Program-made: the position numbers and the translations under genes
Assembly (NCBI GenBank): GCA_020348445.1
Contig: CP070751.1
Span: 4,743,778 to 4,807,777, forward strand
Length of the DNA: 64,000 nt
Source: Thermoplasmata archaeon
GTDB taxonomy: Archaea; Thermoplasmatota; Thermoplasmata; GCA-020350865
Direction: 5' to 3'
The notes under the pieces: generated by a model
What the model was told of the DNA's origin: nothing
What the model saw: only the letters and a program-made list of their open reading frames with translations
The model's database searches: none
In this document: piece by piece, positions 2,984 through 44,930 of the stretch
How the letters are laid out: each line of letters begins with the position of its first letter
Numbering within the stretch: the stretch's first letter is position 1

Positions 2984-4336
2984 ATGAATAGCGATAGGAA
3001 GAAGTTAGTAATTCGTATATTCTCGATTTTGTTGATAATTTTACTCTCGATTAAAGGATTGTTTTTAATCCCTTCTATGATAGACAACGCAACTTCTGAA
3101 GGATCGACAGAAATTAGTGGTTTCATATCATCGGATGCTGTATGGGCTTTGGAAAATAGTCCTTATATAATAATTGAAAACACTTTAGTTGAAGAAAATG
3201 TCAATTTAACTATCGAACCTGGTGTAATCATTAAATTCAACTCAGATAAATATATACGTATTGATGGAACATTATATGCAGTAGGAACTGAATCAAATAT
3301 AATTACTTTTACTTCAAATTCAAAATCACCTGAAAGAGGTGATTGGGGTAAAATACAAATCGAAAAAACCAGTAAAGATTCTATTATAAAATATTGCAGA
3401 GTTGAATATTCATCAGAGGGAATTGATTGTAGCGCATTAATGATTTCTATAACAGATAGCACCTTTTATACCAATGGAAATGGGATTGATTTGCATGATT
3501 GCGACTCAATTATAATGAATAATGAATTTATCAACAATGAACTTGGAGTTAACGAGGGGAAAAATATAATTAACAATGTATTTATTAAGAATGGTCGAAG
3601 CATTCTCTATGGAGAAAATGTTACTAATAATATTGTTATAAATAATGATAGAGGAATTATAAATTCAAATCTTATACAAAATAACTATATCCTTAATAAT
3701 AATGGGGGTGTCGATATTGGGAGGAAAATTAAAGTCTATAATAACTATATTGTTAATAATAGTGAATATGGTATCAACATTTTAGGTTCGGCAAATGAAA
3801 ATATCACGAATAATATTATTACGAATAATGAAATTGGAATAGAAATGGAACAGGGGGCAACTTCTCAAATAATGAATAACAAAATTGCTAATAATAAAAT
3901 CGGAATTAATATTTACTTTAGTTCTTCTTCTAATGAAGATACAAATTTTACAATAAGAAATAATAATATCCAAGATAATATTGAGTATAATTTCCGAAAT
4001 AGTGTAGAAAAAAAATATTATATGAATTATAACTGGTGGGGAACGACAGATACATCCTTAATAGATATATCTATTTATGATTATCAAGATGATTTTGAAT
4101 TAGGTAAAGTTGAATATTTACCAATCTTAGAATCACCAGTGGATGTTATACTTCAAAATATGCTCCCAATTTCAGAATTAGATCTAAGTCAATATGATTT
4201 AGATGAACCCAAAGAGGATTCGGATGATGACTTCATAGATTTTCTTGGATCAGAATTCTTCATTGCAATTAGCGTAATTGTCATTGTCTTAGGATTAAGT
4301 ATATTCTTTTATAGAAGAAAAAGAAGAGATGTCTAG
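2984..4336 (+). CDS. Parallel beta-helix (PbH1/NosD-like) repeat surface protein with a C-terminal TM anchor
   Basis: It has an N-terminal signal/anchor (LVIRIFSILLIILLSIKGLFLIP) and many short Asn-rich turns of the form NNxIxNNxxGI. It has a C-terminal TM helix (FFIAISVIVIVLGLSIFFY) followed by RRKRR. A GAGGT lies ~8 nt upstream of the ATG. Confidence 0.55.
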   Translation: MNSDRKKLVIRIFSILLIILLSIKGLFLIPSMIDNATSEGSTEISGFISSDAVWALENSPYIIIENTLVEENVNLTIEPGVIIKFNSDKYIRIDGTLYAVGTESNIITFTSNSKSPERGDWGKIQIEKTSKDSIIKYCRVEYSSEGIDCSALMISITDSTFYTNGNGIDLHDCDSIIMNNEFINNELGVNEGKNIINNVFIKNGRSILYGENVTNNIVINNDRGIINSNLIQNNYILNNNGGVDIGRKIKVYNNYIVNNSEYGINILGSANENITNNIITNNEIGIEMEQGATSQIMNNKIANNKIGINIYFSSSSNEDTNFTIRNNNIQDNIEYNFRNSVEKKYYMNYNWWGTTDTSLIDISIYDYQDDFELGKVEYLPILESPVDVILQNMLPISELDLSQYDLDEPKEDSDDDFIDFLGSEFFIAISVIVIVLGLSIFFYRRKRRDV

Positions 4337-9645: not shown

Positions 9646-12600
9646 CTACTTCTCCCAACTTACCTGGTTTGCGCCGCCTTCTGTTTCCTCCTCATCCACA
9701 GTTAACGCCTCCACGACCTCTGCCTCCACCACCTCCACATCCGCGTATGCTGTTTGGGGGGAGCTCTCAACCTGAAAATCAACTGTTTCTTCCTTGCCCT
9801 TTCTTCTTAACAACAGGACCATAATTAGAATTATCACGATAATGATGATGAACAGTAATAGATAGACCAGGTTATTCTCCAGCATCTCAAATGCTCCACC
9901 CTCCTGGGGGCTATCATCCTCATCTACGCCATTACCATCCCCATCACCATCCCCATCACCATCGCCATCGCCATCGATGTCTTGCCACTTTGTTGGGTCA
10001 TCTGGGAAGGCATCAGGATTTGTTCCATTGGGATTGTCTCCATAGCCATCTCCATCTCTGTCTGACCATTGAGTGGGATCGTTTGGGAATGCATCAGAGT
10101 TGTCTCCAATCCCGTCATCATCAGAATCCTGCCACTCTGTAGGATCCAATGGAAATGCGTCTTCGTCATCCAAGTAAGTGTCGTTGTCATCATCAGAATC
10201 CATGGAATCAGGGATGAAATCCCCATCAGTGTCAATGGGTACTGAGCTGGAGTTGTACGGATCAGTTCCTTCGGATTCCTCTATTGTATCCTCATACCCG
10301 TCATTGTCATCGTCCAAATCCGCATTATCTCCTATCCCATCACCATCTGAATCTTCCCATTCTGTTGGGTCTTCTGGGAAGGTATCATTCTCATCAGGGA
10401 CACCATCGTCGTCGTAATCGTCATCTATGACTGGTTCATACACGTTCACCCTCAACAATGTGCTAGAAGCGTTGTTGCTGAGATTGTCCCTTGCACCGTA
10501 AATTATTGTACCTGTGTTCAATGGCAGGGTAAATGGCGAGGTATATACATTATAAGTGGAGCCTCCGTCGATGCTGTACCATATAAAATCTACGCCGACA
10601 CCCGTGGTGTCATTGGCAATAAAAGTAACTGGTGTTGTGGTATTTACCCAATATCGTTCGTCAGGAGGAGGAGTAACATTCCCTATGAAAATGGTGGTAT
10701 TTGGCGGTGTTATATCTATATTGACAGTTATAGAAAAGACAGATTCATTGTTGCCGAGATAGTCCTCTGCTCCGTAGGTGATGTTGTGCAGTCCCTCTAT
10801 ATAGCCCGTTAACATGAAATATGAATATTCAAAATATTCGCCGTCGATTGTGTACCAAATAAATGAAACACCGCTTAATTCATCTTCTGATGTCAGAGTG
10901 AATGGTGTACTTTGAGTCACATTCCAGCAATCAGAGTCATTTAATCGATATTTGGGCTCCCCATAAGAAAGTGATGAGTTTGGTGGGGTATTATCCAACT
11001 GAACAAGGATACTGTCATATGTTTCATTGTGATTCAGATTGTCTATTGCGCCCCAGGTTATATTGTACTCGCCATCTACGTAGTTCGATAAATTGAATAC
11101 CTGACCCTCGAAATAGGTTCCATTTATCGTGTACCAAATCGTGTCAATCCCTGAATATGACTCCAGAGAGGCGAGGGTGAATTCAGTTAGAAATGTTACA
11201 TTCCAGTTATGCTCATTAAGTCTGCGATATTTTGGAGAACCAACAAAGATCTCAGTTTGAGGGGAGGTATCATCTAAAACGACCACCTTTTCATTTCCTG
11301 TTTCGTTGTTACCAATCATATCAACGCTGCCCCAGGTTATTGTGTGAATTCCTTCATTATAACCGCTGAGATTGAAAGATATCCCTTCGAAATATTTTCC
11401 GTCGATGGTATACCAAGTGTAGTTCACACTAGATCGATTATCGAAAGCTAGCAAATCAAATTGTGTGAAAGAGGTTACATTAAAATTATCGCTTTGATTC
11501 AATCGATACTTTAAACCAAAGAGTGTTATGTTCGTAGTGGGCGCCTGTGTATCGACATACACATAGGTCGTGTTGCCTGTTTTGTTGTTTCCCACACGAT
11601 CTCTTGCGCCAAAAGTTATGATATGGATACCATCTGAATAACCATCCAAGTTGAAATCCGAGGCCTCAAAATATATGCCATCGATGGTGTACCAATTTGT
11701 ATCGATCCCTGATTGGGTATCATCAGAATTAATGTCAAAGAGTGTGGAAGTTGAAACATTCCAATGATCTTGAGAATCCAGGTGATACTTTGGCAAACCT
11801 ATATCCAAAGATACAGAAGGAGGAGTCGTGTCGAGAATTACTGTGATAGTTATTTCTGTTTCATTATGTCCGAGATTATCCTGGCTCCCATATACTATCG
11901 TATGAGAACCGTCATCATATCCTGAAAGGTTGAAGCTAGAGCCCTCGAAATATTCTCCATCAATGATGTACCAACTGAAAGCAACACCCGAATAACCGTC
12001 ACTGGCATTGAGTATGAATGTGGTTGTATCTGAGACGATCCACGGATCAAAGTCATGTTCTCGGTATTTTGGATCACCCACCTCCATTTTGGTATTCGGT
12101 GCTAGTTTATCGAGAAAGATGACTATTGAATTGCCTGTTTCGTTTGTTCCGAGATTATCGATACTGCCCCAGGTAATTGCATATGAACCTTCATTTAATC
12201 CGAAGTCAGATAGTGTGAAACTTTCCCCCTCGTAATATTTTCCATTGATTGTGAACCAGGTTATCATTACACTTGAATTATGGTCTGGATGATCCACTGG
12301 TGTAAGGTTAAATTGTGTATAGGCGGTAACGTTACATCCATCGAATCCGCCAGTGGGGTATTTATCGCTTCCAAGGGTTAAAACCGTTTGGGGCATTGAA
12401 TCATCCAGCCAGACTGTGATGGTATTTGACTCGTTATTACCCAGGTTGTCACAGCTGCCCCAGGATATGGTACGTGCACCTTCATCATAACCAGAGAGAT
12501 TGAATACCAGACCCACATACAAATCAGAATCGATTTTATACCATGTAAAAGCCAAGCTTGAGTTGTGGATTGGTAAATCCTGCGGTGTTAAAGTAAAGGG

Positions 12601-15600
12601 GGTCTCGGAGGTCACATTGGCTTCATCTTCGTATTCCACAGGATGATGCGGAGAGCCTATGGTCAATTCAGTATAGGGTACTGAATCGTCGAGCCAGACT
12701 TTGATAAGATTCCCTGTTTCATTGTTATCGACATTATCTTTGCTGCCCCAGGTTATGTCATGCTCTCCCTCAGAATAGCCTGATAAGTTGAAACTTGTAC
12801 CTTCATAGTAATCCAAATCTATAGTGTACCATGTGACTGCCACACTTGCGTTATGGGAGGGATTGTCTTTTGCTGTTAGGAAAAAAGTAGTATTTGACGT
12901 GACATTGCATCCTTCCTGTGGGGATAACGGATATTTTGGGAGAGCGATTGTAAGTGTTGTCTCAGGCGTGCTGTCATCCACCCATATGGTGATAGTGCTG
13001 GCCGAGCCGTTGTTACCGAGGTTGTCCTCACTGCCCCAGGTTATTGTGTGGGCACCTTCACCATAACCCAACATTGTAAATTGCGAGTCTTCATAGTAAT
13101 CAGTACCTATGAAATACCAATGAAATGCAATGCCTGATCCATGAGAGGGATTGTCTAGTCCAATGAGAGTAAGCTGTGTATTCGAGGTCACGTTGCATTC
13201 GTCATTTGGCGAATCAGGATGTTTTGGTTCGTCAATAGAAAGTATGGTGGAAGGTCCACTTTCATCTATCCAGACTGTTATATTTATGGTTCCGTTGTTG
13301 CCGCTAAAATCCTCACTTCCATATGAAATGTTATGCGGTCCTTCACTGTAACCTGAGAGTGTGAAGGGCGTTCCATCAAATTCAAAATAAACTCCATCGA
13401 TGATGTACCATGTGAAATTCACGCCCGAGTATTTGTCCCATGCCGATAGGTTAAAGGAAGAGGTTTGTGTTATGTTCCAGTCGTCACCAACATTGGCCCG
13501 ATATTTCGGATCTTCTATGGTAAGGGTTGTAATTGGTGGAGTGCCGTCCCACACCGTGATATTGCAGGTATCGTTGTCCCAGTTACCCCATGCATCGCTC
13601 ACGTTCAATGTAACTGTAAAAACACCTATGGTCGAGTATGAATGCACCACACTCGAATCATAAGGACCCATCTTGTTGGAATAGTTACCGTCGCCAAAAC
13701 TCCAGTTGTACCATGCGATGTATCCCGAGTCATCCCATGAACCTGAACCATCTATCACTATGGGTTGATCTGTTCCTGTTGAGTTGTCTGGACCTGCGTC
13801 CGCTATGGGAGTTACATTATCCTTCCCAAATATCTGCATCGTTGGATCACCTAAAAGGTTCCACTCATAAACGACCCATCTGTAGGTGTTGTGTGTCAAG
13901 GCATCCGAGGCGAACTCCACCTTTGTTTGTTGGAGGGTTTTACCGATTCTAATCTCGTAGTTGTTAAAAAGCTGATTGTAGAACTCGTTATCAAGTTCAC
14001 CGCTGTATTTGGAAACGTCGAAGCTGATGAACCATCCAAACCTGCTGTTTAAAATGCAGGCCACAAAACCGCCGTCCGGATTGATTATATACTCTTCTGC
14101 CATACTATCCCTATCGCCCACATAGCCACCATCGCTTCTTCTTCCATCAAATGAACCACTGTAGCATGCTATTGAAAGGTGTATGGGATAGTAAGTGTTG
14201 ACAACATCATCAGCATCTGTATCAGAATAAAATGTACCTTCCTTGATCTCATAGCTTTGGACGGAGCCATGACCGCCATGGTTGACGAAAAGGGTGTTGT
14301 TGGCGATTTCTTGTTCCCAAATTGCAACTGATATCTCGTGCCCGTCTTTCTCGTACAATCGGGTTATATTGTAAACAGAAGGGATGTAACTCTCGACACC
14401 GTCGACTGAAACTCCTCCATCTCCGTTTTTTATATAATCAAGATAATAGGGACCACTTGAATCGGTCTCCCCGTGTAATGTGACATGCCTGGGTCTTGGA
14501 TTTGCCTCGAAGTATGTGACCTTATCAACGAAGGTCTGAGCCTCGGTAACAGAACCTACAGGAGCCCTCCCCACGAAAACCTCGGCCAAAATGTCCGATT
14601 CCTCCCCAGCATCCCCACCTCCTCCATTGGCAGAGTCCTTCTCACCGTATATGGAATCTCCATCATTGTCCCAGTTTCCGTCCAAACCTCCAAAATATAG
14701 GTCAGTGGGGATGTCATCATCCTCTTCTGGACCTCCTGTAGCGAAAACGTAACCATAACAGCCCCTGTGAGGCATTATTTCGTCATCTCCTCCCAGCATT
14801 ACAAAACTCGTGCTCCAATTGATGTATGCATCCTTGATGAAATTACGGATTTCTTCCTGGGTATCGTTACCGTTATAATCGGGATCGGCTGTGATGGCCT
14901 CTTTGGTAACCACTATAGTTGGTATCCCGGAGCTGTTCTTATTATTTGCCATTGTTTGAAAAGTGGAGGCCAGTGCATTGCTTGTAATTATCACATAGTT
15001 ATAAGTTTCAGATGAATTTGTCAGGGAAAGCGGTGTGATACCCCCCGAGGATTCCTGTTCACTGGAAGTTTCATAGGAATCCAGCATTAAGGGATTATCC
15101 ACAAATCCCTTTACTAATTCCTTGTCTTGGTCTAAACCACGGTACAAAGGAGATATGTCCCTAATATCAAGGGTGGTTACCGTGACATCCATGTTCGTGA
15201 AGTAAAGTACTTTTCCAGAAGAAGGTAAATAATGCATTGGGTACAAGTTTAAAAATAGGATTTTATAACCCCTTAACGTTTGCACAGAAACAAATGAAAA
15301 TTCAATCTCTGGATATCTATTTTCTGAGTCATATATTGACCAATCTAATGTCTCAGTCGACAGACTTGTATCCTCTGAACCCATGATCATGGATTCCTCG
15401 CCTGGCTTGATATAATATGTTCCATCAATGACTACCTCGTCTTTTCCAGTTACTTTGATATTTCCCAGGACATTGCCTTGTGGAAGGAGAACATTTATAC
15501 TCTTTACAGGAATTATTGGCATGCCCGGTTTTATCTCGTTGCGTAGAGGCTCCATCCGTGGAATATCATATTCCCCTATTTTTTCCATCTCAGGTTCTGA

Positions 15601-15885
15601 AAAACTGTAACTTATTGAAAATGTATTTTCCTTGACAACATCGATTATGTCTGGGTCCACTGATTTCAAATCCTGATAAAACGAAACCTCGGTGGTGCTT
15701 AAATCTGAGTCTGCATCCGACACTTTTATGTCAGCAGAAATTGGTGCGCCCACGCTATCTTTCACATCCAAGTGATCTTCTGGGATTTCTTTTCCCAAAT
15801 CCCCTAAAACACCTGGGATGCCCATTGTAAACAATAAGAGCAAAACCAGAAAGAGTGCGGTTTTTGTGGATTTTTGTTTTGCCAT
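9646..15885 (-). CDS. Giant surface-anchored C25 (gingipain-like) cysteine peptidase: signal, propeptide/C25 domain, PKD, 11 WYTIDG-type repeats, thrombospondin-type-3-like Ca repeats, TM, cytoplasmic tail
   Basis: The signal peptide is ALFLVLLLLFTMGIPGVLG. The C25 catalytic dyad context is FVNHGGHGS (about 14262-14290) and HLSIACYSGSFDG (about 14158-14187). The PKD domain is DAGPDN...WSFGDGN...VTLNVSD. There are 11 repeats of ~93 aa with the motif (F/Y)TWYTIDGxYFEG...GxHTITWGSxDNLGNNET. The Asp-rich DxDxDGxxDxxD repeats and a (DG)n run lie at ~9930-10440. The TM helix is LLLFIIIIVIILIMVLLL. Confidence 0.8.
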   Translation of the reverse strand: MAKQKSTKTALFLVLLLLFTMGIPGVLGDLGKEIPEDHLDVKDSVGAPISADIKVSDADSDLSTTEVSFYQDLKSVDPDIIDVVKENTFSISYSFSEPEMEKIGEYDIPRMEPLRNEIKPGMPIIPVKSINVLLPQGNVLGNIKVTGKDEVVIDGTYYIKPGEESMIMGSEDTSLSTETLDWSIYDSENRYPEIEFSFVSVQTLRGYKILFLNLYPMHYLPSSGKVLYFTNMDVTVTTLDIRDISPLYRGLDQDKELVKGFVDNPLMLDSYETSSEQESSGGITPLSLTNSSETYNYVIITSNALASTFQTMANNKNSSGIPTIVVTKEAITADPDYNGNDTQEEIRNFIKDAYINWSTSFVMLGGDDEIMPHRGCYGYVFATGGPEEDDDIPTDLYFGGLDGNWDNDGDSIYGEKDSANGGGGDAGEESDILAEVFVGRAPVGSVTEAQTFVDKVTYFEANPRPRHVTLHGETDSSGPYYLDYIKNGDGGVSVDGVESYIPSVYNITRLYEKDGHEISVAIWEQEIANNTLFVNHGGHGSVQSYEIKEGTFYSDTDADDVVNTYYPIHLSIACYSGSFDGRRSDGGYVGDRDSMAEEYIINPDGGFVACILNSRFGWFISFDVSKYSGELDNEFYNQLFNNYEIRIGKTLQQTKVEFASDALTHNTYRWVVYEWNLLGDPTMQIFGKDNVTPIADAGPDNSTGTDQPIVIDGSGSWDDSGYIAWYNWSFGDGNYSNKMGPYDSSVVHSYSTIGVFTVTLNVSDAWGNWDNDTCNITVWDGTPPITTLTIEDPKYRANVGDDWNITQTSSFNLSAWDKYSGVNFTWYIIDGVYFEFDGTPFTLSGYSEGPHNISYGSEDFSGNNGTINITVWIDESGPSTILSIDEPKHPDSPNDECNVTSNTQLTLIGLDNPSHGSGIAFHWYFIGTDYYEDSQFTMLGYGEGAHTITWGSEDNLGNNGSASTITIWVDDSTPETTLTIALPKYPLSPQEGCNVTSNTTFFLTAKDNPSHNASVAVTWYTIDLDYYEGTSFNLSGYSEGEHDITWGSKDNVDNNETGNLIKVWLDDSVPYTELTIGSPHHPVEYEDEANVTSETPFTLTPQDLPIHNSSLAFTWYKIDSDLYVGLVFNLSGYDEGARTISWGSCDNLGNNESNTITVWLDDSMPQTVLTLGSDKYPTGGFDGCNVTAYTQFNLTPVDHPDHNSSVMITWFTINGKYYEGESFTLSDFGLNEGSYAITWGSIDNLGTNETGNSIVIFLDKLAPNTKMEVGDPKYREHDFDPWIVSDTTTFILNASDGYSGVAFSWYIIDGEYFEGSSFNLSGYDDGSHTIVYGSQDNLGHNETEITITVILDTTPPSVSLDIGLPKYHLDSQDHWNVSTSTLFDINSDDTQSGIDTNWYTIDGIYFEASDFNLDGYSDGIHIITFGARDRVGNNKTGNTTYVYVDTQAPTTNITLFGLKYRLNQSDNFNVTSFTQFDLLAFDNRSSVNYTWYTIDGKYFEGISFNLSGYNEGIHTITWGSVDMIGNNETGNEKVVVLDDTSPQTEIFVGSPKYRRLNEHNWNVTFLTEFTLASLESYSGIDTIWYTINGTYFEGQVFNLSNYVDGEYNITWGAIDNLNHNETYDSILVQLDNTPPNSSLSYGEPKYRLNDSDCWNVTQSTPFTLTSEDELSGVSFIWYTIDGEYFEYSYFMLTGYIEGLHNITYGAEDYLGNNESVFSITVNIDITPPNTTIFIGNVTPPPDERYWVNTTTPVTFIANDTTGVGVDFIWYSIDGGSTYNVYTSPFTLPLNTGTIIYGARDNLSNNASSTLLRVNVYEPVIDDDYDDDGVPDENDTFPEDPTEWEDSDGDGIGDNADLDDDNDGYEDTIEESEGTDPYNSSSVPIDTDGDFIPDSMDSDDDNDTYLDDEDAFPLDPTEWQDSDDDGIGDNSDAFPNDPTQWSDRDGDGYGDNPNGTNPDAFPDDPTKWQDIDGDGDGDGDGDGDGNGVDEDDSPQEGGAFEMLENNLVYLLLFIIIIVIILIMVLLLRRKGKEETVDFQVESSPQTAYADVEVVEAEVVEALTVDEEETEGGANQVSWEK

Positions 15886-16007
15886 TAGATCACCGATACT
15901 TGTAACTCATATTATTCTTTTGGTTAAATTTCAAGGTCTTTTCTGTCCCGTGTTTTTTGGGTAGCCAGACGGTCCTGGGTTTCAATATGCAAATTTCAGT
16001 ATTTATA

Positions 16008-19000
16008 TTATTTGTTGGGAGATTTGGGTCTTTCCTTTTGGTTAATCCTATTGCCAGGACTGCTTGTATCTTCCCATGTTACGTTTTGATAAGTGGTCTC
16101 TTCCCCCACAGAATTTACGGGAGGCTCAGGTTGTTCTTGAACGACGATCTGTTGCTGGGCAGGCTCGGGCTCCTTCTTCCAAGAGGCGCTCGCCCTCCAT
16201 CTCTTATATCCTTTGTACATCAATATCAAAATGATCAACAAGATTATTCCTATTATCAAAAAGTTGATGCAAAATGATTGCTCAAACTGGCCAATGAATG
16301 GGAGCTTTTCCCAATCTGTGGGTTCCCGCCATCTATCCTTATCTGTGGGATATTTATCCTCTGCATCACCTACGCCATCACCGTCCGTATCTGGATTCAA
16401 GGGATCTGTTTCATCTTCATCAACGATTCCATTTTGGTTTTTATCCTCGTCGATATCCAGTAGCCCGTCATTGTCGTCATCAGTGTCTCTTATATCCTCA
16501 ACCCCATCTCCGTCCGTGTCTATGATGTCCACGATCACCTGGAGTGTGGATTTATCGGCCTCATTGTCCAAGGCATCGATACCATAATAGATTATGGAGG
16601 TTGTCGAATTTGGAACCTTAAAGGGCGATTCATATATTGTATAACTCGTGCCTCCATCGATGCTGTAAAGTATAGTGGTGCCGTCCGCACCAGAGTCAAA
16701 GGAATCCAGAGTGATGGGAGTGGATGTGGCAATATGGAGTTCATCATTGATGGTGCCATTGGGCTGCCCTACTTTTATTGAGATTTTCGGGGGTGTGTTG
16801 TCGATATAGACCCTCTGGGTGTTTCCAGTTTCGTTGTTCTCTAGATTATCCATGGAGCCCCAGGTGATGGTATGGAAGCCATCGGATTTTCCATCGAGAT
16901 TGAAGATGGTCCCCACAAAGTATTTACCATCCAATGTATACCATGTATGGGCAACACCAGAATACATATCAAATGGCGTTAATGTGAAAGTCGTTTGGGA
17001 GGTGATGTACCAATTGTCGTTATCAGCCATGGGGGATTTTGGTGAGCCAATATCCATATCTGTATCAGGATGTTTCGTGTCAAGGTATATGAGTTGAGTT
17101 TTTTCGGTTTCATTGTTACCCAGGTTGTCATAACTACCGTATTTGATGGTATGAAAACCATCTAAAATCCCGGTCAGATAGAAATTTGAACCCTCATGAT
17201 ACACTCCATCTATGGTGTACCATGTATCAGCGACACCAGAACGTTGGTCAGTTGACGTCATTGAAAACATTGAGGCGTCCGTTACATTCCAATAATCATA
17301 TTGGCTGTCACGATATTTTGGCGAGGTAAAATCGATATCAGTTACAGGACGGGTATTATCCAAAATCACGATTTTTGATTTTGCTGTTTCATTGTTGCCT
17401 AGGTTATCTATGCTGCCATAGGTGATGGTATGAACACCATCATTTAAATCGGAAAGATAGAAAGTAGAGCCTTCGAAATACTCGCCATCAATTGTGTACC
17501 ACGAAGTATACACCCCGGATTTCGAATCAGAGGAAGATAATGAGAACTCAGTATCGGACGAGACATTCCACGTGTCGATTCCCGCTGCCCTGAATTTCGG
17601 TTGGTCGAAACTCAGTGAGGTTGAAGGGAAACCAGCATCTAAAATCACATTCAAGGTATTGCCTGGCTCCGAGTTCCCAAGGTTATCCACGCTACCCCAA
17701 ATTATGGTATGCAACCCCTGTCCTAAGCCAGACAAATTGAAGCTCGTTCCCACATAATAGTTGCTATCAATGAAGAACCATGTGTAATTCACTCCTGAAT
17801 ATTTGTCTGAGGGTATTAGGGTAAATATTGTTGCATGCGTGACGTTCCAGTAATCATCCAAATTGTCGCGATGCTTTGGCTCGCTTATATCATACGGGGT
17901 GTTTGGTGGGGAATCATCGAGAATGACATCCATGAAATTGTACGATTCGTTGTACCCCAGAGTATCCCTGCTTCCCCACGTTAGGGTGTGCAGTCCTTCA
18001 TCAAGACCTGAGAGGGTGAAGGGATTGCCATCGTATTCATGGTATTCACCATCTATTGTGTACCAGGTAAAATCAGCATCATTGGAGATGATCAACACAG
18101 TCAATTTAAAATCAGTTTGGGAAGTTACATTCCAAAGATCGGTGGTGGATTCTCGATACTTTGGTACACCTATGTCCAGTATTGTAACAAGGGATGTGAA
18201 GTTGAGATTCACGATCTCTGGCGGATTTGTTTCGTTCCAACCGAGGTTATCCTGGCTTCCCCAAGTGATGGTGTGCAATCCCTCAGAATAACCAGATAGG
18301 TTAAAGAAATTACCCTCAAAGTAATTACCGTCGATTGTATACCATGTGAAGTCCACACCAGAGTATAGATCGGATGAGTATATCGTAAAGATCGAAAGGA
18401 TTGTCACGTTCCAGTTATCCTCATCATCCTTGCGGTATTTTGGATCGCTTATTGATAGAAGCGATGAGGGGGGTGAATCATCCAACCATATGGTGATGAA
18501 ATTGTCAGTCTCGTTGTTTTCTATTCTATCGTAACTTCCCCAGGTGATGGTATGGGAGCCCTCCACCAAGCCAGATAAAGTAAATGATGTTCCTGTGTAA
18601 AATTCACCGTCTATCGTATACCATGTCAAATCGATACCGGCATTATGAAGAGTAGGTTCGTCCGCCCTAGAAAGAGTAAACTGGGTAGAGGAAGTAACAT
18701 TGCACCCATCGTAAGGTGATAGGGGATGTCTTGGCGTTTCGATGGTCAAGTCGGTAACAGGAGGCGAATCGTCCACCCATACTGTTATCGAGTTGCTCGT
18801 TTCGTTGCTACCAAGGTTGTCCATTGAACCCCAAGCTATGGTATGCGATCCTTCGCTGTAACCTGTTAGATCAAATGTAAAGCCCAGATGATATTCACCG
18901 TCGATGAGATACCAGGTGTAATCGATTCCGGAATTGTGAATATCAGGCTTGTCAGAGCCTGATAATGTAAACTGGGTTGAGGATGTTACATTACAACCTT

Positions 19001-22000
19001 CGTAAGGTGATAGTGGATACCTCGGCGTTCCAATATATAAATTGGTTACAGGGCGCGAATCGTCCACCCATACAACAATTGTATTTCCTGATTCATTGTG
19101 ACCAAGATTATCTTTACTACCCCATGTTATGGTGTGCATGCCCTCACCGTAGGCTGATAAATCAAATGCTGAGCCTGTAAAGTAATCACCGTCTATCGTA
19201 TACCATGTAAAATCGATTCCAGCATTATGGATATCGGGCTTATCAGCTGCTGATAAGGAGAACAGGGTTTCTGACGTCACATTACAACCATCGTAAGGTG
19301 ATAGCGGATATCTCGGTGTTTCAATGGACAAATCGGTTTCAGGTGGTAAATCGTCCAACCAGACAACTATTGTATTTCCTGTTTCATTGTGACCAATATA
19401 ATCGGTGCTACCCCACGAGATCGTATGGGCACCTGCCCCGTAACCTGCAAGGTCGAACAGCGATCCAGCATAGTAATCGCCGTCTATTTTGTACCAGGTG
19501 AAATTTATGTCAGAGTTATGGCCAACTGGTTTATCATTTCCTGATAGCGTAAACTGGGTGCTGGATGTTATGTTACAACTTTCGTATGGTGTTAATGGAT
19601 ATCTCGGTGTTCCCATGTCTAGATCTGTTTGTGGAGGCGAATCATCAACCCAGACTTTTATTGAATTTCCTGTTTCGTTGTTGCCAAGATTATCTTCGCT
19701 GCCCCACAAAATGGTGTGTCCCCCCTCACCGTAGATGGATAAATCAAAAATGGATCCAGTATAATAATCACCGTCTATTACATACCACGTGGAACTGATA
19801 CCAGTGCTGTGAGTTATAGGCTCGTCAGCTCGCGTCAGCATAAACTGGGTGGTTGATGTCACGTTGGAGCCATCATTTGGAGTCAAGGGATATCTTGGCA
19901 GGCCAATGGTCAATTGAGTTTGCGGGGGCGAGTCGTCAACCCAGATCGTTATTGAATTTGCTGTCTCGTTGTGTCCCAAATTGTCCATGCTTCCCCATGT
20001 GATCGTATGCTGGCCCTCTCCATAGAAAGACATATCAAATGCAGAACCAGTATAATAATCGCCGTTGATGGTATACCAGGTAAAATTGATACCAGAGTTG
20101 TGAACATCGGGCTTATCTGATGCTGTTAAGGTAATCTGGGTGTCTGATGTCACGTTGATACCTTCATAGGGGAAGGAAGGATATCTCGGCAAGCCCACCG
20201 ATAATCCTGTTTCTGGGGGTGAACCATCAACCCAGACAAAGAACGAGTTTCCTGTTTCATTGTTACCTAGATTATCGATACTGCCCCACAAAACCGTATG
20301 GGAGCCTTCGCCGTAGGTTGATAAATTGAATGTTGTTCCAATGTATAAATCTCCATCTATGGAATACCATGTGAAGTTCATTCCTGAGTTGTGAAAACCT
20401 GGATAATCTGCACCTGATAATGTAAACTGGGTTTCGTGTGTCACGTTCACATATTCAAATGGAATTTCGGGATATTTTGGAGAACCTATAAAAAGGTTAG
20501 TTGATGGGGGTGAATCATCAAGCCAGACTATGAAAAATTTTCCAGTTTCGTTGTTACCAACATTATCCACACTACCATATGAGATATTATATTTGCCCTC
20601 GATGTAACCTGAGAGGTCGAAGGTGGTACCTTCATAATAATCTGAATCGATGACATACCACGTCTTATTCACCCCTGTTCGTGAATCTGATGAGGATAAC
20701 GATATCTGGGTGCTCGACGTGATGTTCCAGGGATTAAATGTTACTAGGCGGTATTTTGGATCTCCAATAGTGTATGTGGTAATTGGTGGGGTAATATCAA
20801 GATAAACCTGAATTGAATTGGCTGTTTCATTGTTACCCACGTTATCGATGCTTCCGTACATGATCGTGTACAATCCCTCTGCATAGCCTGATAGATTGAA
20901 TTCAAAACCCTCGTAATAATAGGAATCGATGATGTACCAGGAATAATTGGTGCCAGAATATTGGTCAGTGGACTGTAATGTAAAGGTTGTCATGTAAGAG
21001 ACATTCAATATGTCGCCAACGGTTGCTCGAAAGTTCGGCTGCCCTATTACAATGTTCGTTTGCGGAGGTACCACATCTACATTAACGGTCTGAATATTTC
21101 CAGTGGCATTCTGGCCTAGATTGTCCATACCACCCCATGTGAGGGTGTGAACTCCTGGTGTTAGTGTAAAAGGAGCTGAGTACTCGTAATACACCCCATC
21201 GATTGTATACCACGTGAAATTGATTCCAGAGCCATCACCGTCACCATTGTCAACAAGGGTAAGTAAAGTTGTGGTAGAGATATTCCAACTGTCAGTTGGT
21301 TGTTGTCGAAATTTTGGTGTGCCAAATGAAATATCGGTAATGGGTGGTGTGCTGTCGAGGTTGACTTTTATACCCCATGTCTGGAAGTTGCCCACATTAT
21401 CTTCGCTGTACCATAATAAATTGACCTCACCATCTAGAATTCCAGAAAGATTAAATATCAAGTCGTAGTGGGGACCAGAATCAGCAAAATACCAGGTGGT
21501 ACTCATTCCCGAGTACTTGTCATATGGGGATAAAGTGAACAAGGTTTCATCTGTCACATTCCAGGGATGGGAGTCGTGTACCCGATATTTTGGAGTGCCG
21601 ATGGCGATGGGTGTGACAGGTGGAGAGTTGTCCAGGCATACAAATATGTTATTGCCTGTCTCGTTGTTACCCACCATATCCTCGCTACCCCAGGTTATGT
21701 TGTGCAGGCCCTCATCATAGCCTACCAAATCGAATGCCATCCCTTCGAAGTATTCTCCATCTATCGTATACCATGTGAAATTCACACCCTCATAGTTGTC
21801 AACAGCAGACAATGTGAACAGAGTAATCGTGAGGTTCGCGGTGACATTCCAATTGTCCCCGATATTCTCCTTGTATTTTGGATCTCCGATGGTGAGGGTT
21901 GTAACAGGTGGGCCGATATCGGCAACTGTGATATTGACCTCATCAGTATCCCAATTTCCGAAGCTGTCACTGACATTCAAAATCACGGTATAAAACCCGG

Positions 22001-24170
22001 GCACAGTGAAATTGTGTGTTAATATGGAATCGGTCCCATTGTGATATGTTCCGTCTCCAAATGACCAATTGAACCAAGCGATAAAGCCAGAGTTGTCAGT
22101 GGAGCCTGAGCCATCCAAAACCACCGCAACGTTTACATCCGATGAATTGTCAGGACCTGCATCTGCCACAGGCGGTATGTCAGTTGGTACCGCCACGTTA
22201 TAGACTATTGGTGTATAAAGCAAATGACCCTCCTCGTCCAGGATTTTGACGCGGAAATCCCAGAATCCCTCCTGCAAAGCAGTGCAGTTGATCACTCCGT
22301 TTCCACCTCCGATCCAGCTTAAGTTTACTTGAGGTACTACAGATAAAAATGGATCTGACGTGCCGTTCAACCTGGACTCAAGAATAAATGAACCGTTGTT
22401 GCCATCGTTATCGGCACCTACATCCTCATCAGGAAAGCCTGTATCGTTAAGTATGAAGTCGTACACAGGTTTAATGCTCATGTCATCTACAGGATCTGAT
22501 ATGAATATTCCAACAGGGCCGGAATAGATCTCGTTAAAGCCAATGGACATGTTGCCGTCCGGGGCTATATCGCTTATGTTCCAAACCCAAACATGTGTGT
22601 CCGAGCCATTGTAGCTGTCACTGTTGGGAACGGTGTCGTTTCTGAAGCCCATGACATCGTTTTTCCAGGGATCTGTCGATTCGCCCTTGGAGCCTCCAGC
22701 AGTAATAAGTTCTTCATTGCCATCTGCTTCCTCTAGGTCAACCCTCAATCGATTGGGATTACGATTTGCAGGGGCAGTTTCATTGATATGCCATATTAGA
22801 ATTCCATCACCTGGCAGGAATGAGTCGAATCCTTCTTTCTGTCTGTTTTCCACCAAAAAATATTCGGTTGTGTCCTGCGAGGGATCATGAGCCCATATCT
22901 TATAGATTACAGTATTATTCCATACAGGTGGAATTTCCAATCTGAAAAGAGAAAGATCAGATGTGACTATTTTGGGCTCAACCCATCCCAGTTTTATTTT
23001 TGACCATGCACAGAAATGGGCTGGAGAATTTCCTCCTCCATTCCAAGAGCCGCTAGCCATGACACCCCATTTACCTATTCCGTCAGATTCACCGCCGCTT
23101 CCCCCATAATCTGAATCATAAAGGTCAGGTAGGTTTAGTACATGCCCGAATTCATGGGCAAAAACTCCCACCCTTCCGTCTTCTGGTTCTGTTGAATACG
23201 ATCCTGCTGTAACACCATCATTTGTTACATAGAATGTACTGCTTTTATGGGACCATATATCAAATTCGTCCCCGCTTTGCTCCTCTCCTGAGCCTGCATG
23301 TATTATAAATAGGGCATCTATCCACCCATCGGAATCCAAATCATAGGGTGAGAAATCAACTGTTGGATCTGATTTGTTCACAGCCTCTCTTGCCATGTTG
23401 GATACAGAGCCATTGGCATTGTCCCTCCCTCCCCCCTCATTGTCACCATAATAAGCCCTCACATAGTCACTTTGAAAGGGGCCAAAAACATCCACCTCGA
23501 TATCGAATTGACCGTACGATACCTCCTGATAATAGGTGCGCATCGTATTGCCGGTGGTTCCGTTAAGCAACTGCTCAAAATGGGCTTTGTCATTTCCCGG
23601 ATCAAAATCATTATCCTGAAAACTCAGCATGATGGCAACTGCCTTCCATGTGGTGTTTATAGGAGGTGCCCGAGTCCCATGGGGTTTATCTCTCACTTTT
23701 AATCCACTAACATCTGGATGATCATTGGATAAATGTCTTTGTATTCCAGAAATAAATATTGGATCTACCTCACCGACTCTATTATTGGTGGGAACCAAAA
23801 CACCCCTTTCATCTTTTTCTGCGTAGGTCCACCAGCCAGTCTCATCTTCCATAATGGAATATCCATCCATGGTTTCCACGTGACCACCAAACTGTTCCCC
23901 AACTCTTCTAGCTTCAAATTCAGTGCCATCGGGCTGAATTATAATAAAAGGGGCAGGATCTGGTGGATAGGTCGTGTATCCTGTATAATATCCCTCATCA
24001 TCAAGCAAATTTGCATTAATATCTTGGATACTGGGCTCCATTACAGTTGAGAGATTTTCCGAGTTCTCTATATTACTCCCAGCTATTCCTAACAAACCAG
24101 CAATTAAAAGGCAAATAAGTGATAGGAATATCATAGAACTTGGATGATGTTGTTTAGCTTCCTTCTTCAC
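16008..24170 (-). CDS. Giant surface-anchored M6 (immune inhibitor A-like) metallopeptidase: signal, M6 domain, PKD, ~19 WYTIDG-type repeats, Ca repeats, TM, cytoplasmic tail
   Basis: The zinc motif is AHEFGHVLNLPDLYD at 23121-23160 (HExxH plus the LPDLYD typical of M6). The PKD domain is ADAGPDN...WSFGDGT...VILNVSD at ~21930-22190. There are ~19 repeats of the same ~93-aa module as in the downstream gene. D-rich Ca repeats lie at ~16290-16540. The TM helix is INFLIIGIILLIILILMY. The start codon in the track is GTG, and an ATG 12 codons downstream is possible. Confidence 0.8.
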   Translation of the reverse strand: MKKEAKQHHPSSMIFLSLICLLIAGLLGIAGSNIENSENLSTVMEPSIQDINANLLDDEGYYTGYTTYPPDPAPFIIIQPDGTEFEARRVGEQFGGHVETMDGYSIMEDETGWWTYAEKDERGVLVPTNNRVGEVDPIFISGIQRHLSNDHPDVSGLKVRDKPHGTRAPPINTTWKAVAIMLSFQDNDFDPGNDKAHFEQLLNGTTGNTMRTYYQEVSYGQFDIEVDVFGPFQSDYVRAYYGDNEGGGRDNANGSVSNMAREAVNKSDPTVDFSPYDLDSDGWIDALFIIHAGSGEEQSGDEFDIWSHKSSTFYVTNDGVTAGSYSTEPEDGRVGVFAHEFGHVLNLPDLYDSDYGGSGGESDGIGKWGVMASGSWNGGGNSPAHFCAWSKIKLGWVEPKIVTSDLSLFRLEIPPVWNNTVIYKIWAHDPSQDTTEYFLVENRQKEGFDSFLPGDGILIWHINETAPANRNPNRLRVDLEEADGNEELITAGGSKGESTDPWKNDVMGFRNDTVPNSDSYNGSDTHVWVWNISDIAPDGNMSIGFNEIYSGPVGIFISDPVDDMSIKPVYDFILNDTGFPDEDVGADNDGNNGSFILESRLNGTSDPFLSVVPQVNLSWIGGGNGVINCTALQEGFWDFRVKILDEEGHLLYTPIVYNVAVPTDIPPVADAGPDNSSDVNVAVVLDGSGSTDNSGFIAWFNWSFGDGTYHNGTDSILTHNFTVPGFYTVILNVSDSFGNWDTDEVNITVADIGPPVTTLTIGDPKYKENIGDNWNVTANLTITLFTLSAVDNYEGVNFTWYTIDGEYFEGMAFDLVGYDEGLHNITWGSEDMVGNNETGNNIFVCLDNSPPVTPIAIGTPKYRVHDSHPWNVTDETLFTLSPYDKYSGMSTTWYFADSGPHYDLIFNLSGILDGEVNLLWYSEDNVGNFQTWGIKVNLDSTPPITDISFGTPKFRQQPTDSWNISTTTLLTLVDNGDGDGSGINFTWYTIDGVYYEYSAPFTLTPGVHTLTWGGMDNLGQNATGNIQTVNVDVVPPQTNIVIGQPNFRATVGDILNVSYMTTFTLQSTDQYSGTNYSWYIIDSYYYEGFEFNLSGYAEGLYTIMYGSIDNVGNNETANSIQVYLDITPPITTYTIGDPKYRLVTFNPWNITSSTQISLSSSDSRTGVNKTWYVIDSDYYEGTTFDLSGYIEGKYNISYGSVDNVGNNETGKFFIVWLDDSPPSTNLFIGSPKYPEIPFEYVNVTHETQFTLSGADYPGFHNSGMNFTWYSIDGDLYIGTTFNLSTYGEGSHTVLWGSIDNLGNNETGNSFFVWVDGSPPETGLSVGLPRYPSFPYEGINVTSDTQITLTASDKPDVHNSGINFTWYTINGDYYTGSAFDMSFYGEGQHTITWGSMDNLGHNETANSITIWVDDSPPQTQLTIGLPRYPLTPNDGSNVTSTTQFMLTRADEPITHSTGISSTWYVIDGDYYTGSIFDLSIYGEGGHTILWGSEDNLGNNETGNSIKVWVDDSPPQTDLDMGTPRYPLTPYESCNITSSTQFTLSGNDKPVGHNSDINFTWYKIDGDYYAGSLFDLAGYGAGAHTISWGSTDYIGHNETGNTIVVWLDDLPPETDLSIETPRYPLSPYDGCNVTSETLFSLSAADKPDIHNAGIDFTWYTIDGDYFTGSAFDLSAYGEGMHTITWGSKDNLGHNESGNTIVVWVDDSRPVTNLYIGTPRYPLSPYEGCNVTSSTQFTLSGSDKPDIHNSGIDYTWYLIDGEYHLGFTFDLTGYSEGSHTIAWGSMDNLGSNETSNSITVWVDDSPPVTDLTIETPRHPLSPYDGCNVTSSTQFTLSRADEPTLHNAGIDLTWYTIDGEFYTGTSFTLSGLVEGSHTITWGSYDRIENNETDNFITIWLDDSPPSSLLSISDPKYRKDDEDNWNVTILSIFTIYSSDLYSGVDFTWYTIDGNYFEGNFFNLSGYSEGLHTITWGSQDNLGWNETNPPEIVNLNFTSLVTILDIGVPKYRESTTDLWNVTSQTDFKLTVLIISNDADFTWYTIDGEYHEYDGNPFTLSGLDEGLHTLTWGSRDTLGYNESYNFMDVILDDSPPNTPYDISEPKHRDNLDDYWNVTHATIFTLIPSDKYSGVNYTWFFIDSNYYVGTSFNLSGLGQGLHTIIWGSVDNLGNSEPGNTLNVILDAGFPSTSLSFDQPKFRAAGIDTWNVSSDTEFSLSSSDSKSGVYTSWYTIDGEYFEGSTFYLSDLNDGVHTITYGSIDNLGNNETAKSKIVILDNTRPVTDIDFTSPKYRDSQYDYWNVTDASMFSMTSTDQRSGVADTWYTIDGVYHEGSNFYLTGILDGFHTIKYGSYDNLGNNETEKTQLIYLDTKHPDTDMDIGSPKSPMADNDNWYITSQTTFTLTPFDMYSGVAHTWYTLDGKYFVGTIFNLDGKSDGFHTITWGSMDNLENNETGNTQRVYIDNTPPKISIKVGQPNGTINDELHIATSTPITLDSFDSGADGTTILYSIDGGTSYTIYESPFKVPNSTTSIIYYGIDALDNEADKSTLQVIVDIIDTDGDGVEDIRDTDDDNDGLLDIDEDKNQNGIVDEDETDPLNPDTDGDGVGDAEDKYPTDKDRWREPTDWEKLPFIGQFEQSFCINFLIIGIILLIILILMYKGYKRWRASASWKKEPEPAQQQIVVQEQPEPPVNSVGEETTYQNVTWEDTSSPGNRINQKERPKSPNK

Positions 24171-43800: not shown

Positions 43801-44930
43801 TTCCAGACCGAGGATATCTTCTTTCCCCAGCCATTCTCATACATCATTGGATTATCCACTGCACCGTCCCAATGGATCCATCTTTTATCCCAGAATTCGT
43901 TCCAAACGTGATCTTCAGCCGTATTGAGGGTACAGGTTGATGGTATCAAACCTGCCCTTGCGATGGCATTTCGCATGTCCTGGTACTCACCGCATCTTCC
44001 ATAGTGCTTTCGATAGATTCTAACAGGTTGTATGGGTCTTTCTGTGATGTCGCTTGTAAATCTCATTGATCCACTGATCCAGCTGTTACACCTCGAGATG
44101 GCCTCCCATAGCGTATATGCTCCCTCTAATTTCTCCTTAAGGAGCGGATAACCCGAATCATTGAAATAGAATAACCAATCCCTCCAGAATTTACCTGTAG
44201 GCGGTGGCACACCGTAGTTTTTGTCAAATGGAGGATCTGTTGTATAATTGTATTCGGGATCCACGTAAGTTGCGAGCTCGTCACTTAACTTCGGTTCCAC
44301 AATATACCAATAGTAAATACCTTTGGGAAGCTCGCAGCTGACATTATCCCTGTCTTTGTAGATCACGGTTGTATAGTCATCCCTTTCCACGATTTCCACG
44401 TATTTGAGATACTGATCGGCATCGTAGATCAACTGGGCATTATGGGTGATAAGCTCTGGAAAGAAGTAATCATCCTGGAGATTCTCGACTGCAGTATGAG
44501 CAATTACAAAAGCAATTTCGTCTATGTATTTCTCATCAGGTGAGTTAAGTATCAGGTTTGCGTATGTGTTCTGGAATTCAGAGGATAACTGGCGGAACTT
44601 AAAGGAGAGATTGCCCCTAAGCCATCTTGGTACCATTGCTAAGGCCTGATCGCAAGTAGGAGGTAGGTCAACTGGAGGTTTTGCTGAAAGTTCATCATCC
44701 CCAGGGTCGAAGTAGATGTAGAACGATTCGCCTGGATCGATTTGAAGAGTTTGTGTGATAGAGGCGAAAAGATCGGATTCTGTCTCATCACTATCTGTGC
44801 TTTCAATGGGGGTTGAATCCTCATCTGAACCTGGATTATCACCTGTTGTGGTACCTGGAATGATGATGTTGGATATCAAAAGCATAATTAGCATCCAAAT
44901 TAACGTGCTCCGATTTTTTGTTGATAGCAT
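40878..44930 (-). CDS. Giant surface protein with an N-terminal transglutaminase-like (papain-fold) domain, about eight Ig-like repeats and a C-terminal TM anchor
   Basis: It has a signal/anchor (LIWMLIMLLISNIIIPG). The transglutaminase-core triad context is HYGRCGEYQDM (43981-44008), EDHVWNEFWD and WIHWDG. There are ~100-aa repeats with GDxIxIxGTAxDNxxIxxLELIxD...GEHxIxVxAxDxxGN. The C-terminus is FILLLITIVIFAIIALVAFFKWPRKEK. Confidence 0.7.
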   Translation of the reverse strand: MLSTKNRSTLIWMLIMLLISNIIIPGTTTGDNPGSDEDSTPIESTDSDETESDLFASITQTLQIDPGESFYIYFDPGDDELSAKPPVDLPPTCDQALAMVPRWLRGNLSFKFRQLSSEFQNTYANLILNSPDEKYIDEIAFVIAHTAVENLQDDYFFPELITHNAQLIYDADQYLKYVEIVERDDYTTVIYKDRDNVSCELPKGIYYWYIVEPKLSDELATYVDPEYNYTTDPPFDKNYGVPPPTGKFWRDWLFYFNDSGYPLLKEKLEGAYTLWEAISRCNSWISGSMRFTSDITERPIQPVRIYRKHYGRCGEYQDMRNAIARAGLIPSTCTLNTAEDHVWNEFWDKRWIHWDGAVDNPMMYENGWGKKISSVWNTRGDSDIWSVSKKYTKICNYTATVLDDSGMPVDGALVRVSTEYYYNPDLLTTTTWGSTDYTGNVTIPLGDERNFWSSAESDDLGSDPINGVTQVISNSEADASYTYTFHLPLSAPRLDYEEITPPGIVDPHFEMEVKYDVEAHITQVENVYTGEHGDSYGQSGNIDFFIADLLNYNLYANDLSFDAYNVEERSISNDVLFTLPNEDRYYAVFSNEFSQSTTKIINITVNIYSSLKLVLEKPLEGEEFFHGDIFIIEGTAWGPEGVDKVEIDIDDMNNWMPALDTSEEWEEPFTTWELSLDTSVFKPGIHMVKAKASDNENISMMQKNFSLLDATDPVLNIESPSEGDSFWLGDALTVNGTATDNGWIESVKLIIDSDEQNFTDITSYLSDDHFSYEMDVDDIGYGDHTITVIISDTAQNNASDTKAISVFEEVSPEVRIQNPTDSQIFRPGETIDIAGIATDNEEIASLELIFDNNDTVNIISNLLEDGTWTYRWNAPSSSSEGEHKIEVWATDGSGNKASDMTTVSLDGINPELLVESPLEGAIYWLGDTIIVSGTATDNIMVDTLEMIIDSDEVNRTDITYYLVDESWSIKINTHDLDYGEHTITIRVIDEVLNLAYITRNIRILEKTTPVVRIDDPSDEDVFKQGNTIYFSGFAQDNKEIASLEIVIDSTIQIDITSNIMQDGFWSYNWETQYTTSEGEHDVEVIATDGSGNVASDRIKIILDGTSPSTEIAVSEENQVFKAGSPIEFYGTAFDNLGITNAYLIIDDETVIDITWKISDGDWNYKLWETRELESGTHTITISVQDQVGHIEEASTTFEVDSQDPKVEIAAYEESEVVGGSISIIGNAFDDTGIKEMALIIDNEEPINITSVLINGNWEYDLETFGLSEGKHTIIVIVTDNVDNQAMYSVKIKLVEDTTDTDSPIDGSSGEGDKDSEGFSEVDAFILLLITIVIFAIIALVAFFKWPRKEK

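Follow-up and report, generated by a model that had tools for sequence, protein, structure and literature searches.

Two adjacent giant genes of a Thermoplasmata archaeon place M6 and C25 protease heads on a shared stalk of OmpL47-type Ig-like repeats with a predicted membrane anchor

The DNA analyzed here is a stretch of 64,000 nucleotides from a Thermoplasmata archaeon (GenBank assembly GCA_020348445.1, contig CP070751.1, positions 4,743,778 to 4,807,777), referred to below as the window. Its minus strand carries two long open reading frames (ORFs) of 2720 and 2079 aa with 122 bp between them, which we call gene A and gene B. Gene A is read from a GTG start; an ATG alternative 12 codons downstream was chosen by another gene caller. 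Both ORFs, their lengths, and the gap agree with the original prediction of two adjacent giant genes on one strand, and all of the motifs quoted in that prediction are present where it had placed them. We consider it probable that A and B are type-I membrane glycoproteins, each bearing a protease at the far end of a long rod that stays attached to the cell. The features of the locus are as follows.

16008..24170, minus strand: gene A, M6-headed stalked membrane protein, 2720 aa, GTG start
24063..24170, minus strand: signal-peptide-like segment of A, aa 1-36, with a Lys-rich n-region, a hydrophobic core, and small residues at IAG/S (rule-based)
22788..23636, minus strand: M6 (immune inhibitor A-like) catalytic domain of A, aa 179-461 (TIGR03296, PF05547, alignment to InhA 4yu5)
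23115..23156, minus strand: zinc-site motif of A, HEFGHVLNLPDLYD, aa 339-352 (alignment to 4yu5)
21912..22181, minus strand: PKD domain of A, aa 664-753 (PKD model, 56% identical to the PKD of B)
16527..21911, minus strand: stalk of A, 19 OmpL47-type Ig-like repeats, aa 754-2548 (repeat profile, NCBIfam, AlphaFold 2)
16311..16526, minus strand: Asp-rich DxDxDGxxDxxD segment of A, aa 2549-2620, TSP3-like by motif only
16203..16286, minus strand: predicted single transmembrane helix of A, aa 2629-2656 (hydrophobicity, rule-based)
16011..16202, minus strand: predicted cytoplasmic tail of A, ∼64 aa, with ASWKKE and NVTWED motifs
15886..16007, minus strand: spacer between A and B, 122 bp, AT-rich with TATA-like stretches
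9646..15885, minus strand: gene B, C25-headed stalked membrane protein, 2079 aa
15802..15885, minus strand: signal-peptide-like segment of B, aa 1-28, possible cleavage at VLG/D (rule-based)
15175..15531, minus strand: gingipain-type pro-domain of B, aa 119-237 (PF08126, profile match, Foldseek)
13834..14997, minus strand: C25 catalytic domain of B, aa 297-684 (PF01364, profile against PDB, Foldseek)
14263..14283, minus strand: NHGGHGS of B, catalytic His context, aa 535-541 (alignment)
14149..14169, minus strand: ACYSGSF of B, catalytic Cys context, aa 573-579 (alignment)
13549..13824, minus strand: PKD domain of B, aa 688-779 (PKD model)
10441..13548, minus strand: stalk of B, 11 OmpL47-type repeats, aa 780-1815 (repeat profile, NCBIfam)
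9916..10440, minus strand: long Asp-rich segment of B, aa 1816-1990, with DxDxDGxxDxxD, DAFPxDPxxW, and a (GD)n run
9793..9894, minus strand: predicted single transmembrane helix of B, aa 1998-2031 (hydrophobicity, rule-based)
9649..9792, minus strand: predicted acidic cytoplasmic tail of B, ∼48 aa, with TVDFQ just past the helix and QVSWEK at the C-terminus

An identical copy of both genes is found on a Logan contig from a sediment metagenome; the whole stretch is spanned by one uninterrupted sediment metagenome contig at a depth of 28 with zero differences, and in a second sample it is covered independently in fragments, again with zero differences. The repeat counts are therefore not an assembly artifact. 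Collapse of the arrays is also unlikely because the DNA of the stalk repeats is merely 60-77% identical (all units, gapless repeat finder). A contig of 2.8x depth from the second sediment sample lacks 359 nt in the final repeats of gene A (16839-17199), and its joint is flanked on one side by just 21 nt. A chimera or an uncommon length variant may explain this low-depth contig, and we treat it as unreliable. Convergent with gene B, a 214-aa ORF on the plus strand (9061-9705) overlaps the last 60 nt of B; the Logan record lists it among its genes, but it has no family match and an odd composition and is possibly spurious.

The heads of A and B share no detectable similarity, and the homology of the two proteins starts with the PKD domains. 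These are 56% identical to one another, match the PKD model at 58.4 bits in A and 53.5 bits in B (cut-off 27), and align to the PKD structures of ColH. The layout first proposed, of PKD, repeats, Asp-rich segment, transmembrane helix, and tail, is thus common to both proteins, with 19 and 11 repeat units. The accompanying claim that they differ solely in the head did not hold: the C-terminal anchor regions are alike in kind and have almost no sequence in common.

The head of A falls well within the M6 family. It matches Peptidase_M6 (PF05547) at 3.4e-28 and 99.2 bits (cut-off 22) and the NCBIfam M6 domain TIGR03296 at 5.2e-71 and 239.9 bits (cut-off 110.8) over aa 179-461, while Pfam returned zero matches on the two flanks (aa 37-180 and aa 461-665). 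In the alignment to solved structures, HEFGHVLNLPDLYD of A falls on HAFGHDLGLPDEYD of InhA (4yu5). The core HEFGHVLNLPD lies against HAFGHDLGLPD of 4yu5, which is an E-to-A mutant, so that A has the two His, the Glu, and the Asp downstream of them in the expected positions. The Gly of this HEXXHXXGXXD-type site is replaced by Asn in A and is a Gly in the closest orthologue (L005); the orthologue of A in L001/L005 carries HEFGHVLGLPDLYD. With both family cut-offs passed and the catalytic residues aligned to InhA, the M6 call made from the letters alone is upheld, and by its family features the head of A is a predicted zinc-dependent peptidase.

The head of B matches Peptidase_C25 (PF01364) across the whole model (1.9e-55, 189 bits) and Propeptide_C25 (PF08126) at 8.8e-07 and 28.7 bits. 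A single-sequence phmmer search of the C25 head against PDB returned PKD matches only, and the gingipains were reached only with a 19-sequence profile. This profile of B and 18 homologues matches RgpB at 2.6e-27 and also Kgp, PorU, and the gingipain pro-domains (4ief_A, 5mun). In the profile alignment, the GHGS and AC stretches of B align with the catalytic NYTGHGSE and FDVACVNGDF of RgpB (1cvr/4ief), and H539 and C574 of B are invariant in the 19 homologues. Structure prediction leads to the same family: with the AlphaFold model of the B head, in which the core has a predicted local distance difference test score (pLDDT) >90, the first Foldseek matches are RgpB and Kgp. The C25 domain model matches 1cvr at E 2e-16 with a target-based template modeling score (TMt) of 0.63, and the pro-domain separately matches 4ief_A and 5mun (TMt 0.64-0.67). 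The gingipain-like C25 head had also been predicted; the family thresholds are passed and the His/Cys dyad aligns to that of RgpB. The homology of the pro-domain indicates that the C25 protease is made as a zymogen. A C-terminal sorting domain of the type IX secretion system (T9SS) was not found in B with Pfam (no PF18962 or other such match), and the protein ends in the transmembrane helix and tail.

Below the PKD domain, each protein continues into its stalk. By a profile made from the repeat units, A has 19 repeats and B has 11; the units are 91-97 aa long and 40-70% identical. In A, unit 1 is of a short type, units 6-12 belong to a subtype of 97 aa, and a divergent terminal variant occupies position 19; in B, a short type is followed by a 95-96-aa subtype (units 2-5), the short type again, and a terminal variant. 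The two stalks thus have a block order in common, with a short first unit, a 95-97-aa subtype with a DKPxxHN insertion, a short block, and a divergent terminal unit. The first units (A01 and B01) are 64% identical and the terminal units (A19 and B11) are 40% identical. The repeat is a known module since NCBIfam recognizes it as the OmpL47-type domain (NF047446; 384.7 bits in A and 196 bits in B against a cut-off of 40, in 18 and 9 stretches), and Pfam is without a dedicated model for it and gives faint Big_13/Big_3_3 matches. Neither protein is an OmpL47 equivalog by NF047441 (336 positions), which gives many partial repeat matches and 231.6 bits for B against a cut-off of 250; length and architecture also differ.

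An AlphaFold model of two consecutive repeats (pLDDT 94, predicted TM-score 0.81) consists of two beta-sandwiches and is all-beta. Its best Foldseek match is the BIg rod of SiiE, on which both domains superpose at a query-based score (TMq) of ∼0.7 with 16-17% sequence identity; the neighbors include an S-layer protein, that of the hexagonally packed intermediate (HPI) layer of Deinococcus. The 53 domains of SiiE measure 175 nm (PMC6272769). At the corresponding ∼3.3 nm per domain, the rod would extend ∼65 nm for the 20 domains of the M6 protein, ∼40 nm for the 12 domains of the C25 protein, and ∼30 nm for the S8-headed relatives described below. N-X-S/T sequons occur in the stalks at about twice their frequency in shuffled sequence (z 5.6 and 8.5), and several stand at conserved repeat positions (WNVT, NNET). 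This enrichment, our sole basis for the point, would fit N-glycosylation of the stalks.

In both proteins, hydrophobicity picks out two segments, the first N-terminal and the second close to the C-terminus, where a tail of ∼48-65 aa follows. At both N-termini, an n-region containing Lys is joined by a hydrophobic core and by small residues that suit signal peptidase. Charge follows the positive-inside pattern at the C-terminal helix, with 4-5 Lys/Arg in the 15 residues past the helix compared with 0-1 before it. These signals would place heads and stalks outside and tails inside the cell, and the heads are thus predicted to lie on the side of the membrane that the original prediction required. 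No archaeosortase sorting signal (PGF-CTERM and similar) was matched by NCBIfam at E<=0.1 in A or B, and the length of the tails past the helix rules out an archaeosortase-type C-terminal signal. The Asp-rich segments between stalk and helix contain the DxDxDGxxDxxD motif 2-3 times. The tails of the family are acidic and contain a recurring [VI]-x-[WF]-[EQ] motif with the consensus EEVE[FW]EPEE. There are two copies each in A (ASWKKE, NVTWED) and B (TVDFQ, QVSWEK) and more than 10 in tandem in S8-headed relatives. The 24 tails hold 46 copies as compared with 5.3 ± 2.2 in shuffles, a figure that is inflated by relatedness and internal repeats. We regard EEVE[FW]EPEE as a motif by which archaeal surface proteins may dock in the cytoplasm.

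An anchor of this kind could be transient. The head, with or without part of the stalk, would then be cut off after export to act as a free exoenzyme, and the stalk and anchor would serve biogenesis or latency. InhA is a zymogen, both head families are proteolytically processed, and a gingipain pro-domain is detected in B, all of which suit such shedding. The literature, moreover, treats archaeal peptidases of this kind as secreted (PMC6461988, PMC9585477). However, a stalk of 1000-1800 residues with a head-specific repeat number and a conserved tail motif would be costly for a throw-away tether, and a conserved cleavage site between PKD and stalk is not seen. We therefore think shedding unlikely as the principal fate of these heads, and continue with lasting display on the rod.

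The relatives of the two genes show how widely this plan is used. The M6-then-C25 pair is also present in two other Thermoplasmata metagenome-assembled genomes (MAGs), L005 and L008. In L005 the M6 gene shows 63% identity across 2625 aa and encodes 19 repeats. Directly after it comes a C25 gene with 11 repeats, also 63% identical, which is cut by the contig end. The L008 pair has 18 (M6) and 11 (C25) repeats. Catalytic motifs are retained in orthologues at ∼63% identity, and the CTP synthase gene upstream of the M6 gene recurs at that place in a third MAG. A search with the B stalk returned 68 proteins, of which the named ones are almost all from Thermoplasmata, with one distant match in Elusimicrobia (29% identity); the source samples are sediment and mangrove metagenomes. 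The stalk homologues are laid out as a signal segment, a head, 5-19 repeats, an Asp-rich segment, a transmembrane helix, and a tail. The heads found on this stalk and anchor are S8 subtilases, M6, C25, beta-helix/NosD, CARDB, and MG2. Some 16 of the proteins are S8-headed, with Big_7 instead of PKD between head and stalk, and all three protease classes occur on the stalk within one MAG. Repeat number goes with the head: the M6 proteins have 19, 19, and 18 units, five C25 proteins have 11 each, and of 15 complete S8 proteins 14 have 8. When the window is compared with L005, its nearest relative, the repeat units are largely position-orthologous. The M6 and C25 head families themselves are huge and are joined elsewhere to dockerin, T9SS domains, FN3, and CARDB.

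The best explanation of this distribution is that stalk and anchor form a lineage-specific chassis of Thermoplasmata, which would have gained its heads by old domain shuffling followed by stable inheritance, with stalk length kept head-specific. The idea of a common stalk with exchangeable heads is hence supported more broadly than it was first put, as S8, M6, C25, beta-helix, and CARDB heads sit on the same chassis. The "cassette system" of the original prediction stands in this evolutionary sense and fails as an active system. Heads currently swapped between stalks by recombination would suit two adjacent genes on the same strand that are homologous from the PKD onward. Against such swapping, repeat DNA is only 60-77% identical and no long identical tracts are shared by A and B. 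Pairing, order, and repeat number are also the same in genomes that are ∼63% identical in protein; recombinases and inverted repeats were not sought. The comparison of genomes that had been suggested as a check for head swapping on conserved stalks instead shows head-stalk pairs that are stable across orthologues, and we hold ongoing exchange to be highly improbable. Tandem Repeats Finder reports one pair only (291 bp, 75% identity), and with the repeat DNA identity this led us to reject recent duplication, gene conversion, or an active cassette.

Some further observations concern these relatives. The M6 orthologue of L008 is split by an in-frame TAG (4196-4198) at the conserved Tyr of the GxYxV strand of the PKD, with the downstream 1797-aa stalk ORF intact. 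The codon may have arisen by a recent nonsense mutation, or it may be an error of assembly or a variant in the population. One related MAG record is labeled Methanomassiliicoccales, an order known for reading TAG as pyrrolysine. At L003 15264-19616 and L011 2-7222, S8-headed stalk genes of other Thermoplasmata are also flanked by another giant gene. One of these neighbors contains an InhA-like MAM domain and CARDB, the other contains six PKD domains, and OmpL47-type repeats are absent from both. Tandem giant surface genes are a recurring feature. Radical-SAM genes beside stalked protease genes in the window and L003 are not orthologous, and we dismissed them as coincidence.

Taken on the display model, the proteases are most likely zymogen-activated and held ∼30-65 nm from the membrane across the family. 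The Sec system would export the N-terminal part while the C-terminal helix stays in the membrane, and the pro-domain would be removed (for C25, by homology only). The active head would then stand at the distal end of an extended, N-glycosylated, possibly Ca-stiffened rod of Ig domains, where it could cut proteins and peptides around the cell. Tethered in this way, the heads would release their products near the transporters of the cell. In diffusion-limited sediment, tethering may keep costly enzymes and their products close by, and the differing conserved rod lengths would set the catalytic classes at differing distances. A protein-degrading lifestyle is plausible, and it is in this conditional sense that we infer the activity, topology, glycosylation, and nutritional role of A and B.

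Several points weigh against this model. A search for RNA-seq runs containing the locus found none. The topology calls are rule-based only. The TSP3 or Ca-binding assignment of the Asp-rich ends is by motif and below Pfam thresholds (B reaches 17.3 bits with TSP3_bac and 14.6 bits with TSP_3 against a cut-off of 25, and A has no match). Rod rigidity and length are extrapolated from SiiE, our own model being of two repeats, and later shedding of the heads may be compatible with the data. Finally, in stable-isotope probing, abundant MBG-D (Marine Benthic Group D) Thermoplasmata showed no incorporation of protein carbon despite having such peptidases, and peptidase genes predicted protein catabolism poorly (PMC9123169), which leaves the nutritional role uncertain.

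The same MBG-D result would agree with a structural or adhesive role, in which the rods form a glycocalyx-like coat or attach to particles and the proteases mature or remodel the cell's own surface or destroy hostile peptides. The nearest folds of the repeat are adhesin rods and S-layer proteins (SiiE, the Deinococcus HPI layer), and non-protease heads (beta-helix, CARDB) share the chassis. OmpL47 is surface-exposed in Leptospira (PMC2698987), and the STABLE protease has been proposed to process tetrabrachion (PMC5744192). On the other hand, three classes of broad-specificity endopeptidase at distal tips exceed the needs of self-maturation, and the catalytic residues are conserved. We judge a chiefly structural function to be improbable, and display of working proteases remains our preferred account.

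The gingipains RgpB and Kgp of Porphyromonas gingivalis have in common with B the catalytic fold, the His/Cys dyad contexts, and an N-terminal inhibitory pro-domain; both are surface-retained proteases with extra beta-domains, retention being a prediction for B. Gingipains, however, carry a T9SS C-terminal domain and are anchored to the outer membrane by anionic lipopolysaccharide (A-LPS), whereas B has a PKD, 11 Ig-like repeats, a transmembrane helix, and a tail, and belongs to an archaeon. A and Bacillus InhA can be aligned over the catalytic domain and at the zinc site of HEXXHXXGXXD type, but InhA is a soluble secreted or exosporium protein of ∼750 aa while A has Asn for the motif Gly, a 2000-aa stalk, and a membrane anchor. 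The plan of protease, spacer, and anchor is also that of bacterial cell-envelope proteinases. Lactocepin PrtP and the streptococcal C5a peptidase ScpA consist of a protease, beta-sandwich spacers, and a C-terminal cell anchor and carry out cell-bound extracellular proteolysis; they differ from A and B in sortase (LPXTG) anchoring to peptidoglycan, in having S8 heads only, and in their far fewer spacer domains.

Among archaea, the tetrabrachion-STABLE complex of Staphylothermus marinus is a surface structure whose 70-nm stalk carries subtilisin-type proteases above the membrane, and it has been proposed to take part in peptide fermentation (PMC5744192). There is no homology to A or B and the resemblance is functional only: tetrabrachion is a four-helix coiled-coil stalk of the S-layer with proteases bound non-covalently at mid-stalk, whereas A and B are each one polypeptide with an all-beta stalk and the head at its tip. 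Tetrabrachion-STABLE and the bacterial cell-envelope proteinases are functionally the closest systems, and neither is homologous in stalk or anchor. For the stalk itself, SiiE of Salmonella, a rod of Ig-like domains arranged in tandem and stiffened by Ca (PMC6272769), resembles our di-repeat model in its extended two-domain arrangement, the Ca sites of the A and B stalks being putative. It is an adhesin secreted by the type I secretion system without the enzyme head or transmembrane anchor of A and B. Leptospira OmpL47, with 39 kDa, has a few such domains and no enzyme head, and A and B are not its equivalogs.

A more elaborate arrangement is conceivable, and we put it forward tentatively, as a doubtful though possible extension of the display model. 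S8, C25, and M6 proteases would form a stratified proteolytic canopy at three heights (8, 11, and 18-19 Ig domains; ∼30, 40, and 65 nm), and the tails would dock an intracellular partner via EEVE[FW]EPEE that positions, clusters, or recycles them.

Elsewhere in the window, a third giant gene and three further genes for large surface proteins contribute to a genome region rich in surface display proteins.

40878..44930, minus strand: third giant gene, 1350 aa, with a signal segment, a transglutaminase-core match (GRCGEY Cys), six Big_7, one Big_13, a transmembrane helix, and a very short tail
59060..63955, minus strand: ORF of at least 1631 aa with Ig-like repeats, 80 sequons, one transmembrane helix, and a ∼80-aa cytoplasmic domain, probably continuing past the window end
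31007..33907, plus strand: 966-aa NosD/beta-helix protein with an N-terminal anchor
2984..4336, plus strand: 450-aa beta-helix protein with a signal segment and a C-terminal transmembrane helix

The third giant gene had been described as repeating the idea with a transglutaminase-like head on a different stalk, and its signal segment, transglutaminase-core match, Big_7 repeats, and transmembrane anchor were all found. It follows the same design principle with a stalk and anchor unrelated to those of A and B. Among metabolic genes, one 1378-aa ORF (53154-57290, minus strand) is a fusion in which a CO dehydrogenase of the Prismane/CooS type (aa 53-623) precedes an acetyl-CoA synthase that is complete (CODH_A_N, CdhC, ACS C-terminal), and it is followed by two CdhD-like genes (52146-53132 and 50803-52146). 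This CO dehydrogenase/acetyl-CoA synthase cluster fits the published picture of sediment Thermoplasmata (PMC6461988, PMC9585477). Adjoining a tRNA-Arg(TCT) at 45696-45771, Rfam finds a second tRNA of 90 nt (45943-46032, minus strand; 57 bits), which is missing from the ARAGORN output and is probably an archaeal tRNA with an intron.

No single part of this architecture is new, as both protease families and the repeat domain are already modeled in public libraries. In published accounts, the C25 and other peptidases of sediment Thermoplasmata are listed as extracellular and a tether is not described (PMC6461988, PMC9585477). Our literature term searches did not find the tethered architecture described, and absence there is no proof. 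A chassis across three catalytic classes, head-specific repeat numbers, and acidic tails with a recurring motif appear to be undescribed in the literature searched.

These findings suggest that supposedly secreted peptidases of these archaea probably work while attached to the cell. Models of organic-matter turnover in anoxic sediment, and the interpretation of porewater peptidase assays, start from the premise that archaea release their signal-peptide-bearing C25, S8, and metallo-peptidases freely. If a substantial fraction of them is instead tethered in the membrane on 30-65 nm rods, the cost-benefit of the enzymes and the attribution of measured activities would change, and substrate reach would shift to particles and neighboring cells rather than dissolved protein. 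Should the canopy of three heights be real, the "extracellular peptidases" counted in sediment archaeal genomes would largely not be free exoenzymes. The family offers a natural case of one display scaffold reused for three catalytic classes, with conserved head-specific spacer lengths.

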